In this document: one piece after another, positions 36,616 to 38,749 of the stretch
Position numbering within the stretch: position 1 is the first letter of the stretch
Layout of the letters: each line of letters starts with the position of its first letter
Source of the DNA: Psilocybe cubensis
Taxonomy: Eukaryota
NCBI GenBank assembly: GCA_017499595.2
Contig: CM038998.1
Coordinates: forward strand, 558,001 to 622,000
Length of the DNA stretch: 64,000 nt
Direction: 5' to 3'
Notes under the pieces: generated by a model
The model's database searches: none
Told to the model about the DNA's origin: nothing
The model's input: the letters and a program-made list of their open reading frames with translations, nothing else
Made by a program: the position numbers and the translations under genes

Positions 36616-36890
36616 TCATTGAGTATCTTGCTGTGTAGAGCGTCGCAACCACGCAGTATCGGCACGAGCGACTTCAACCTCACGCAGCCAAGCGGTATCG
36701 GCACGAATAGCTTCAACTTCTCGGAGCCACGCAGTATCGGCTCGACCAACTTCAGTTTCAACTGGTAGCGGGTTAGAGACAGAAACGGCGAGTATAAACG
36801 AATAATCATACCTGATTCGATTTGTGCGACTGGTAAGGCCGTAACAGATACAATAAGAGCAACAACGATGTAGAGTTTGGCGCTGAACAT
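36616..36890 (-). CDS. Secreted repeat precursor peptide 1 (74 aa): MFSAKLYIVVALIVSVTALPVAQIESV-ETEVGRADTAWLR-EVEAIRADTAWLR-EVEVARADTAWLR-RSTQQDTQ
   Basis: Exon 1 36890-36812; 50-nt GTATGA..CTAAC..CAG intron 36811-36762; exon 2 36761-36616; signal peptide; three 13-aa repeats with identical core and synonymous-only differences in the core codons. Confidence 0.9.
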
Positions 36891-36950
36891 TTCTGAGATG
36901 CTAACCGTTGCAGTAGGAGTTATAGAGCTGTGCAACATTTGAAACCCTGC

Positions 36951-36957
36951 TTTTATA
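36951..36957 (-). promoter_or_regulatory. TATA box of precursor 1
   Basis: TATAAAA on the minus strand about 60 nt upstream of the ATG. Confidence 0.55.
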
Positions 36958-38388
36958 ACTTTCCGTCTGCTCGTTTTCAGATCCTGCATCTTACTTAGTT
37001 GACTCAGGGCAGCTTCCGAGCATTTTGGTATATCGGGCCCCCTTTTCCGCTGCTAGCGTCTGGGGCAATTGACATATTAGATCAGGTATCGATATATGTC
37101 AATAATGCGGGTCCGTCCTTTTCGCTGACTCTTCTGTCTTATGTCGCAAATTGGAAGGGAAGATAATAATTAGCATGTTCCCTCCTAGGCAAATGTAAAA
37201 AAAAACTAAAATAAAATAAAATCCCATGATACTGTATTCAAAAAGCATGAAACAATCGGAGTAAATATGTACTTCTAGTTATGGTATAAAATTGATTTCC
37301 AATGACGACGATTCTGCTTGTCGTGAAGATATATTAATTTCTAAAGTTTACCATCCCTATTTGATTGCAAACCCCTTTTGAGGATGATCCCCTCAACATC
37401 GGTGGCTGTGGGACCATCATACCGCGTAGCAGGCGAGACGGGTGACACTGCACGCGAAGCCCTTGGCAAAGTACGTACATTCGGATGCCCCGAGGCGACC
37501 ACCGATCGTTGAATGCATGACTAAGTTGACTTATGTACCTGGACAACTTTCACATTTCTCTGTGCCTTAAGGTACTTCCGATTTCAGTCGAACCTGAGAT
37601 ATGGTCCGTATGTAATTATGAAGGCCAACTAGACGAAAGTTATTTTTGGTCATTACTATTTTTAGGCGCCCATGAAAGCGCCAAGCGCCATGGTTGATTT
37701 GACCATCGCGCTTAGTTGGTTACACACGTCAAAGTCAAAGTCGCATCAAAAGACGCAAAACAGCTAAGCCTAAAGAACTGTGTATAACTGACCTCCTAAG
37801 AGTATGCAAAGTTTATTGTCCTGCTCGTAATTATGCTTGAACACTTTCATAGCGGGATTGATGCCCCTTAATGCCGTTAGCAGACGAATATCGTCGTGGG
37901 TGAAACAGAAAAATTAAACTACATTGAGTGTTTTATTAGTACCAATATGTATCCATATTTTAAGCATCATCTACCCGCTATATTCGTTTCTATTCAGGTA
38001 AATCGCCCTGGCATGATAATGATACATTATTTCCATGGGGAGTATCTACGAAAGCAAAAGAATCAAAATTTATAAAATTTACTCTGCACATGGCATGGCA
38101 AATAAGAATACCCAAAATGCTACCAAGTTAATCACCACTAATCCCGCGTGCCTCTACCTCAGCTATTCCGGATTATCATTCCAGGCGAACTTGGGTTTGC
38201 TACCGAGATCTTGAGTGAGTCGATGCATCTGCTCAGATCCTTGTACATCAAACGATCCAAGTTTCATAGACACAGGAGTTGTTTCACTAAACACATACTT
38301 TCCGTTTTTGTTAATATGAATATATCAGGCGGCCGTATTTACTACCCTTGATATTGTCGAAGAACTTCCTACGTTCATTTTCTCCACA

Positions 38389-38394
38389 TATAAG
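38389..38394 (+). promoter_or_regulatory. Putative TATA box of precursor 2
   Basis: TATAAG about 85 nt upstream of the ATG at 38475. Confidence 0.4.
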
Positions 38395-38474
38395 AAGGAT
38401 ATTTCTTGAGAGTGGAATTAAGAAACTATCAATTGCTCACCCAGCTTCACTCACAACTCTACTTGCCATACAAC

Positions 38475-38749
38475 ATGATGAAGATATTTCTTGTTCTCGG
38501 AGTATTTATCATCTCTGCGTTGACGTCTCCTGGTTGGTGTTTCGTCCAATAAACATGATGACGAATTTTAATCAGTCATCACCATTTTGGCGAAATGCAG
38601 TCGGTCAAGCGAACACCATCTTCTTGCGGGAGCTTGAAGTCGATCGAGCTGATACCGCCTTTTTACGCGAAGTGGACTCAGAGAAGATGGATACAGCCTT
38701 TTTACGCGAAGTTGCCTCAGCCAAAGTCGACACCGTGTTCCTTCGCTAA
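38475..38749 (+). CDS. Secreted repeat precursor peptide 2 (68 aa): MMKIFLVLGVFIISALTSP-VGQANTIFLR-ELEVDRADTAFLR-EVDSEKMDTAFLR-EVASAKVDTVFLR
   Basis: Exon 1 38475-38532; intron 38533-38600 (GTTGGT...TGCAG); exon 2 38601-38749; signal peptide and four related cores with 13-aa period, homologous to precursor 1. Confidence 0.85.

Follow-up and report, generated by a model that had tools for sequence, protein, structure and literature searches.

A 64,000-nt stretch of the genome of Psilocybe cubensis (GenBank assembly GCA_017499595.2, contig CM038998.1, forward-strand positions 558,001 to 622,000; hereafter the window, whose own numbering is used throughout) carries two small divergent genes for secreted repeat peptides, flanked by two genes of the UstYa/DUF3328 family. 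The question raised by this locus is how the peptides are cut out of their precursors and whether they are modified by the DUF3328 proteins or leave the cell as plain linear products. An earlier note on this DNA had argued that the lack of Tyr in the repeated cores and the single basic residues at their borders imply non-canonical chemistry and processing. What we report here as new is a precursor family that resembles both the Kex2-processed repeat proteins (KEPs) and the dikaritins, with single-Arg junctions and Tyr-free cores containing Phe or Trp, encoded in psilocybin-producing agarics near a pair of DUF3328 proteins of which one is canonical and the other depleted of histidines.

We read positions 36000-39400 and scanned all six frames of the 64-kb window for the pattern (D/N)-T-x-(W/F)-L-R, which occurs exactly seven times, with three matches on the minus strand (36643-36738) and four on the plus strand (38612-38746). 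The matches belong to two small two-exon genes, A and B, that are transcribed divergently from start codons 1.6 kb apart. Gene A (36616..36890, minus strand, 74 aa) starts at ATG 36890 and consists of a first exon encoding a 26-residue hydrophobic N-terminus, the putative signal peptide (36812-36890), a 50-nt GT..AG intron with a CTAAC branch site (36762-36811) and a second exon (36616-36761, including the stop at 36616-36618) with three copies of ADTAWL, each followed by Arg. Cores A1 (36724..36741) and A2 (36685..36702) are followed by R and then E, and core A3 (36646..36663) by RR and a 7-residue tail. Gene B (38475..38749, plus strand, about 68 aa) starts at ATG 38475 with an exon encoding a 19-residue hydrophobic N-terminus, again a putative signal peptide (38475-38532), which is followed by a likely intron of 68 nt (38533-38600), modelled on genomic DNA alone and in phase 1 as in gene A, and by a second exon (38601-38749, including the stop at 38747-38749) with four cores and an R-stop end. 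Core B1, ANTIFL (38609..38626), is degenerate, with N in place of D and Q before the core; it is followed, like the others, by R, and the others are ADTAFL (B2, 38648..38665), MDTAFL (B3, 38687..38704) and VDTVFL (B4, 38726..38743), the last with the stop directly after its R. Between 45 and 150 nt, 14 in-frame GT..AG combinations are available for the gene B intron, of which the 68-nt phase-1 one was picked by analogy with gene A. The P. cyanescens gene model hints that the acceptor could lie further upstream, but the sole phase-0 option that we found by reading, beyond that size range, would leave an intron of 32 nt, which is too short. Both N-termini have a basic residue at position 3-5 followed by at least 12 hydrophobic residues, and the 12-aa Kyte-Doolittle mean is 2.96 for gene A, 2.98 for gene B and 2.3-2.8 in five relatives; the signal peptides were thus judged from hydropathy rather than by a dedicated predictor.

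The repeat unit of both genes has 13 residues, namely the 6-residue core, one Arg and an acidic 6-residue spacer that starts with E and ends with R or K, and the basic residues of gene A exon 2 are strictly periodic (spacing 7,6,7,6,7). Scan and reading bore out that the seven cores lie where the earlier note had placed them and are free of Tyr, which is absent from both second exons and occurs once, in the signal peptide of gene A. They also bore out that KR is absent and RR terminal: neither precursor contains KR, KK or RK, and the single RR follows the last core of gene A. The note's description of the junctions, with R or K ahead of each core and LR-E behind it, held for most copies, R or K being present two residues upstream of the D or N in six of seven cores (Q stands before B1) and LR-E following five of seven, with LR-R and LR-stop once each. 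The absence of Tyr from seven copies of one motif is by itself statistically unremarkable.

The pattern of codon differences is that of selected genes. Among the three repeats of gene A the core codons show 9 synonymous and 0 non-synonymous differences, and the spacers 5 and 7; in gene B the cores show 18 synonymous and 13 non-synonymous differences, the latter at the variable positions, and the spacers 4 and 12. Tandem Repeats Finder reported a 39-nt period in gene A (36644-36754) at 77% nucleotide identity and left gene B undetected, and this low identity indicates that the repeats are old and that the peptide motif has been held by selection. Gene A, gene B in its preferred model, and the homologous gene on a syntenic metagenome contig (L002) all have a phase-1 intron just after the signal peptide. 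The alternative that the cores are chance repeats in an intergenic, transposon-rich region draws on the fact that a homology search of the protein collection returned no P. cubensis entry for either precursor. It has to contend with gene A cores that diverge at synonymous positions only, with canonical introns, signal peptides and stops, with annotated orthologues in P. cyanescens and Panaeolus and with the L002 homologue of the same intron phase; its probability is close to nil, and for practical purposes it is refuted. Because the divergence of the cores is skewed to synonymous changes, the old repeats are held by selection, the N-termini resemble signal peptides and orthologues exist elsewhere, A and B are real, selected coding sequences and not chance open reading frames (ORFs).

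The same peptide recurs in other fungi. A word-indexed search returned P. cyanescens PPQ90003 (P0001), 90% identical to gene A, and one protein from Logan (P0002). With these two in the query alignment, a profile search of 1.84 billion representatives (E ≤ 0.001) gave 15 matches, of which seven, the two query proteins included, are family members; the further ones are PPQ90022 (P0107), the P. cyanescens orthologue of gene B, another Logan protein (P0106), an ENA cluster (P0113), Panaeolus papilionaceus KAF9055666 and Panaeolus cyanescens PPR06266. The other eight matches were discarded as low-complexity look-alikes, seven on reading their sequences and one, the 1,834-aa P0116, without sequence inspection. 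An additional member is encoded on contig L002, with the cores TETKWL, EDTKWL and GDVTWL, the last followed by the stop, which brings the family to 10 precursors (genes A and B and eight relatives) and 47 cores. L002 was the only one of 24 metagenome loci in which motif and k-mer repeat scans found a precursor, most of these contigs being too short to include the slot. An Atlas search with a Panaeolus precursor gave matches that were all below 0.9, including an alpha-factor cluster at 0.82, and we do not count it as evidence.

Across the 47 cores there is no Tyr and no Cys. Position 2 is Asp in 44 and position 6 Leu in 46; position 3 is Thr in 36 and Ala in 9, and position 5 is either Phe (25) or Trp (22), the two interchanging within single precursors. 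The core is followed by a single R in 29 cases, KR in 8, RR in 3, the stop in 6 and a non-basic residue in 1, and it is preceded by a basic residue in 36 of 47, which is absent from the remaining 11; in one relative the spacer is ALPEGxx and the core has no basic residue ahead of it. Six of the ten precursors end exactly at the core Leu. The spacers are wholly different between relatives (EVEAIR, DDTDSR, ALPEGSL), and x-D-T-x-F/W-L is kept through the 47 copies. Judged by its sequences, a hexapeptide family of the form x-D-T-x-(F/W)-L spans Psilocybe, Panaeolus and relatives. In a literature search that left subscription-only papers and bioRxiv supplements aside, we found no description of this family.

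The relatives also bear on how the peptides are released. Two Panaeolus precursors (P0108 and P0115) mix single-R and KR junctions within one chain and carry KR or RR after 11 of their 15 cores, and this KR or RR sits at the exact position of the lone Psilocybe R. Given this correspondence, the chains with both L-R and L-K-R and the six of ten precursors that end at Leu, the Leu-Arg junction is most simply read as a weakened ordinary kexin site and not as a new processing system. On this basis we propose that the signal peptide would very probably be removed on entry into the endoplasmic reticulum, and that a kexin-type convertase of the Golgi would probably then cut after the Arg next to the core Leu, whereupon a Kex1-type carboxypeptidase would trim the basic residue to leave a C-terminal Leu. 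Psilocybe L-R would here be equivalent, by the anatomy of the family, to Panaeolus L-K-R or L-R-R. The acidic 6-residue spacer would be cut off at the R or K with which it ends, either by another protease or through trimming by aminopeptidases. Among the processing steps this is the weakest, because neither Lys at a cleavage position nor the non-basic junctions of some relatives suit a kexin such as Kex2. On the N-terminal side a further protease or aminopeptidases may act, or the spacer may be kept, giving a 12-13-mer product.

The earlier note had suggested monobasic Kex2 cleavage or another protease. The suggestion fits the anatomy of the family, but what it took for a departure is better described as a degenerate ordinary kexin site, and single-Arg cleavage had already been reported: Vogt et al. 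(2022) describe products cut after a single Arg when Coprinopsis KEPs were expressed in Pichia, as well as three KEX2 paralogues in agaricomycetes that are redundant on KEPs. The note had also seen no protease gene in the cluster. We scanned 141 of the 154 window ORFs of at least 95 aa and 150 of the 151 ORFs of 55-94 aa around the locus against Pfam, and among these 291 ORFs there was indeed no peptidase, nor any methyltransferase, P450 or tyrosinase, near the precursor genes.

Genes with such junctions are liable to be overlooked by mining, as the note had predicted for KEP pipelines. Umemura (2020) defines KEPs by at least three repeats of at least 8 aa between KR, KK, RK or RR. There are three tandem repeats in gene A and four in gene B; none of the seven window junctions is dibasic, bar the RR after the last core of gene A, and the window genes therefore fall outside this definition, whereas the Panaeolus homologues conform to its dibasic part in some of their repeats. 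Although that study mined both P. cyanescens (19 KEPs) and Panaeolus cyanescens (10 KEPs), a comparison with all 19 and 10 rows of its Table S2 found none of PPQ90003, PPQ90022 and PPR06266, so that the prediction came true for all three named orthologues. The same table flags PPR06249.1, a type 181 KEP, as having DUF3328 in its vicinity, and its accession adjoins that of the Panaeolus cyanescens UstYa#2 orthologue (PPR06248). PPR06249 may be a second repeat peptide encoded beside the same enzyme; it is probably a different peptide, since type 181 has a collagen-like member.

The two DUF3328 proteins differ in their metal-binding motifs. UstYa#1 (22826..23544, minus strand; intron 23323-23369; 223 aa) has an N-terminal membrane helix and the canonical motifs HELHC and HILHC, and UstYa#2 (48720..49424, plus strand; intron 48865-48951; 205 aa) has HQLKC and VRHC. 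Both match PF11807, scoring 68.8 and 62.4 bits, respectively, against a cutoff of 25, and the spliced UstYa#2 is identical at 205 of 205 residues to P. cubensis JR316_0000167. Both HxxHC motifs are intact in 22 of 22 UstYa#1 orthologues. All 18 sequences of the UstYa#2 clade have another residue in place of the second His of motif 1 (Lys in 15, Arg in 2 and Gln in 1), and in 17 of 17 the first His of motif 2 is absent, leaving xxRHC. A paper on lichens proposes the double HxxHC motif as a test for RiPP-related DUF3328 proteins (RiPP, a peptide synthesized on ribosomes and then modified post-translationally); UstYa#1 passes this test and UstYa#2 fails it, yet UstYa#2 is conserved. For CctR, Huang et al. 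(2025) report that each monomer holds two copper ions through HxxHC(x)nHxxHC, at the interface of a disulfide-linked homodimer, that alanine substitution of the motif His or Cys residues abolishes activity, and that ApnU and AprY behave like CctR. UstYa#1 shares with these enzymes the N-terminal membrane helix, the HxxHC(x)nHxxHC arrangement and the conserved Cys. UstYa#2 departs from them in lacking the second His of motif 1 (K/R/Q) and the first His of motif 2, and the parts of the reports on CctR, ApnU and AprY open to us describe no mixed pair of a catalytic and a His-depleted protein. Nor did our literature search find any description of a His-depleted UstYa clade.

The two types travel together. 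Canonical and His-depleted orthologues share a contig in 13 species, and in five metagenome loci of more distant fungi (L012, L013, L014, L017 and L022) they form a head-to-head pair about 0.2-0.6 kb apart. The pair is kept at 50-60% identity in Polyporales and Boletales, where no member of the precursor family was found. A complex prediction for the luminal domains of UstYa#1 and UstYa#2 gave a score of 0.73, and the best of three controls gave 0.00. Of 78 solved complexes 51 reached this mark, as did 2 of 108 mismatched pairs, and among eukaryotes the figures were 39 of 65 and 2 of 126. The runs, in which the supplied alignments went unused, agreed in at least 94% of contacts, the partner pLDDT (predicted local distance difference test) was at least 77, and the modelled interface lies on the motif-bearing helices, in line with the published account of the CctR homodimer. 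Sequence searches with either UstYa profile found no solved DUF3328 structure, which makes it improbable that the score reflects a known complex learnt by the predictor. Structure prediction thus supports the modelled pairing of UstYa#1 with UstYa#2.

The precursors and the UstYa genes are also linked. UstYa#1 lies 13.3 kb from the precursors on one side and UstYa#2 10.0 kb on the other; if the duplicated block and the copia insertion described below are taken out, the gaps shrink to about 6 and 3 kb and the whole set of four genes to roughly 12-13 kb. Taking about 16 UstYa genes in an agaric genome (the figure for Pleurotus) of about 40 Mb, we would expect some 0.01 per 26 kb, which makes two UstYa genes this close improbable by chance. 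Contig L002, which is free of transposable elements, keeps the gene order of the window: the But2 gene comes first, then the precursor on the minus strand, the membrane protein gene, the UstYa#2 orthologue (74% identical) and sirohaem synthase. The precursor there lies about 4.5 kb from the UstYa#2 orthologue. One scaffold of Panaeolus papilionaceus holds the precursor KAF9055666, the UstYa#1 orthologue KAF9055669 and the UstYa#2 orthologue KAF9055674, their closeness being taken from neighbouring accession numbers; such order is unreliable elsewhere, as Leucocoprinus g1828 and g1831 differ by 11 accessions and P. cyanescens tags and accessions disagree. In P. cyanescens, both precursors and both UstYa orthologues share one 181,794-bp contig, a co-location that says nothing of gene order, and in Panaeolus cyanescens one contig of 96,895 bp carries both a precursor and a UstYa#2 orthologue.

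Several known systems offer points of comparison. The dikaritins (ustiloxin, phomopsin and asperipin-2a) likewise have a signal peptide and tandem short cores in units of about 13 aa with basic-residue junctions, DUF3328 genes nearby, one of them with the double HxxHC, and an aromatic residue with a beta-branched or functionalised one two positions off. They differ in that Tyr, mandatory for ustiloxin, phomopsin and asperipin-2a according to Umemura (2020), is lacking here. The Psilocybe genes further differ in having no dibasic sites; a tyrosinase, a methyltransferase and an S41 peptidase are all missing from the locus, which belongs to a basidiomycete; the enzymes lie kilobases away instead of adjacent, and the second UstYa is His-depleted. 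Victorin of Cochliobolus victoriae is closer in that its core is a Tyr-free hexapeptide, whose aliphatic-x-aromatic spacing matches T-x-F/W here. It is chlorinated and extensively tailored, and has several DUF3328 genes along with an amine oxidase; it is an ascomycete product, and we liken it to the present peptides by description and not by sequence similarity. A review describes the victorin ring as closed from the side chain of Phe to an internal Leu, which means that the DUF3328 family can do without Tyr. The inference drawn earlier from Tyr-free cores to non-canonical DUF3328 chemistry was therefore overstated: Tyr is absent from every one of the 47 cores, but victorin is closed through Phe, and Umemura (2020) gives Tyr in 65.6% of DUF3328-linked KEP repeats, about one third being without it.

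The KEPs of Agaricomycetes (Le Marquer et al., 2019; Umemura, 2020; Vogt et al., 2022) and the precursors of the yeast alpha-factor type share with our family the secreted repeats, the KEX2/KEX1 processing in the Golgi and an acidic spacer between cleavage site and peptide; the KR and RR of the Panaeolus members and the single-Arg cleavage seen in KEPs add to the likeness. Apart from falling outside the operational definition, the window genes differ from KEPs in having two basic junctions per unit, one of them a K or R in a poor kexin context. The epichloecyclin cluster (gigA, the DUF3328 gene gigB, gigC and kexB) also has a multi-core secreted precursor, with a single DUF3328 cyclase, and its processing is reported to depend only partly on one kexin, other proteases contributing. 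Its crosslink uses a conserved Tyr and its cluster has its own kexin and methyltransferase, whereas the window locus has neither. No validated basidiomycete dikaritin or DUF3328-dependent peptide turned up in our literature search.

Would the core peptides then be modified? The odds that they yield a UstYa-modified product, a RiPP, are in our view nearly even and much the same as those of a plain linear secreted peptide. We infer the action of DUF3328 on these peptides from gene position alone: the linkage suggests, at close to an even chance, that the core would be oxidatively modified by the flanking pair, with UstYa#1 as the di-copper catalytic subunit and the His-depleted UstYa#2 as its partner, possibly in a heterodimer. 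The most economical chemistry would be a side-chain link or a hydroxylation that draws on the beta-carbon of Thr3 (or of Asp2) and on the ring of the aromatic residue at position 5, an i, i+2 spacing that is also that of the victorin and ustiloxin crosslinks. By analogy, a short invariant core within a variable spacer, with an aromatic residue two positions after a beta-functionalised one, resembles a dikaritin. The competing explanation, whose probability we set somewhat short of even, is that these are plain KEP-type linear peptides (hexamers or spacer-retaining 12-13-mers) acting as signals, in defence or as surface-active peptides, and that the UstYa genes are mere neighbours. It would have to account for two UstYa genes so close to the precursors where chance predicts about 0.01 per 26 kb, for a linkage that recurs in at least three further genomes or contigs, for a conserved 6-residue core in a variable spacer that is more dikaritin-like than the whole-fragment repeats of KEPs, and for an unprotected linear hexapeptide that would presumably be short-lived outside the cell.

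A good deal nevertheless weighs against modification and, in part, directly for the linear peptides. UstYa#2 lacks two of the four His residues found essential in CctR. The complex score cannot separate a heterodimer from family-wide homodimerisation, because 10 of 12 close cousins of a true partner pass as well. The precursor family, at 10 genes, has a much narrower distribution than the UstYa pair, so that the pair must have another role in most fungi. In one species (L003/L005/L006/L007, UstYa#2 67% identical) the But2 gene is still followed by the membrane protein gene, UstYa#2 and sirohaem synthase, and motif scans, repeat scans and a reading of the ORFs found no precursor in its 1.6-kb slot; as the non-biosynthetic neighbours are equally syntenic, the linkage may reflect conserved gene order only. 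Phe/Trp interchange speaks against reactions that depend on an indole N or a phenol O. Near the genes there is no methyltransferase, tyrosinase or peptidase, and the Panaeolus homologues resemble ordinary KR-type KEPs. In the data of Umemura (2020), DUF3328 lies within 15 genes of 103 of 1680 basidiomycete KEPs (6.1%) as against 1647 of 5372 in Ascomycota (30.1%); the basidiomycete figure is about the chance level by our own estimate, and that author suggests that cyclisation may hardly occur in Basidiomycota. The agaricomycete KEP peptides that Vogt et al. (2022) describe as detected so far, in Coprinopsis, Lentinula and Pleurotus, are linear and minimally modified. A further explanation is that the product is not the hexapeptide at all, the whole repeat protein being structural or adhesive or the acidic spacers being the active part. 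The 11 of 47 cores without a preceding basic residue and the occasional Lys where kexin needs Arg would fit this, as would the Ustilago repeat proteins that are cleaved into structural 'repellent' peptides (Umemura, 2020), but the contrast between cores and spacers in the gene A codon differences (9/0 against 5/7), spacers that differ completely between relatives while the core is kept in 47 copies, and the six of ten precursors that end exactly at a core make it improbable. The fullest version of the modified-peptide reading combines a heterodimeric DUF3328 oxidase acting on x-D-T-x-(F/W)-L, a crosslink or hydroxylation between Thr3 or Asp2 and the aromatic residue, a first basidiomycete dikaritin-class RiPP that is Tyr-free and released at single-Arg kexin sites, and a catalytic plus His-depleted pairing that is ancestral in Agaricomycetes; we consider it rather unlikely to hold in all of these parts at once.

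The remaining features of the window concern the setting of these genes. A recent insertion between the precursors and UstYa#2 (39445..46105), absent from the syntenic contig L002, contains a copia-type long terminal repeat (LTR) retrotransposon (40068-45547) whose LTR stretches are 100% identical. The retrotransposon lies inside a perfect 141-nt inverted repeat (39445-39585 / 45965-46105) and is also bracketed by a second inverted pair of 94 nt at 96% (39668-39761 / 45871-45964); it may have landed inside a foldback element or one of the terminal inverted repeat type. Its gag-integrase and reverse-transcriptase ORFs are in one frame, split by a single TAG at 42841-42843. Between UstYa#1 and the precursors, a duplicated block (24880..31799) holds two near-identical copies of about 1.7 kb (24880-26569 and 30113-31799) that are 98-100% identical over three aligned stretches of 86-300 nt, and each copy carries a paralogue of the membrane protein next to UstYa#2 (25100-26300 and 30330-31500, both minus strand). 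A 63/126-nt tandem repeat array (27188-27523) lies between the copies, within a coiled-coil-like ORF (27080-27562, minus strand).

The gene for this multi-pass membrane protein (46880..48250, minus strand) is the divergent neighbour of UstYa#2 and is syntenic in six metagenome loci (L002, L003, L005, L007, L009 and L010). It matched no Pfam family, its closest Atlas clusters being unnamed Basidiomycota proteins, and it may have an accessory role, for example in transport or in electron or copper delivery. The left neighbour of the precursor slot is a But2-domain gene (34630..35556, plus strand; PF09792, E 3.5e-7) that is syntenic in L002 and L005, and a sirohaem synthase-type gene with NAD-binding, sirohaem and tetrapyrrole methylase domains (49816-51921, minus strand) is syntenic with UstYa#2 in metagenome loci. 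The locus is flanked by a fungal-type protein kinase gene (54657-57419, plus strand) and a Ser/Thr kinase gene (60926-63944, minus strand). About 2 kb from UstYa#1 lie Ser/Thr/Ala-rich, mucin-like ORFs (19605-20971, plus strand) with a perfect 66-nt tandem duplication (19962-20087) and no Pfam family. Exons at 7737-8829 (plus strand) weakly match FAD/NAD-binding and Lys/Orn N-monooxygenase families and possibly represent a flavin monooxygenase gene.

In a paper on Termitomyces, clusters of this kind are labelled only 'fungal-RiPP-like' because no precursor was annotated. What the P. cubensis locus adds is an actual precursor family with a defined core, together with two candidate enzymes, in a mushroom that can be cultivated and is amenable to genetics. 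This family, whose relatives show the lone Arg after Leu standing in for KR, escapes catalogues that rely on dibasic sites, and relaxing the mining rule to an L-(K/R)?-R periodicity should recover more such families. Should the peptides prove linear, they would still constitute a conserved secreted hexapeptide family in Psilocybe and Panaeolus. The pairing of canonical and His-depleted UstYa proteins across Agaricomycetes is a testable lead on the assembly of DUF3328 copper enzymes, and if the heterodimer reading is true, this pairing would be an ancestral design across Agaricomycetes.

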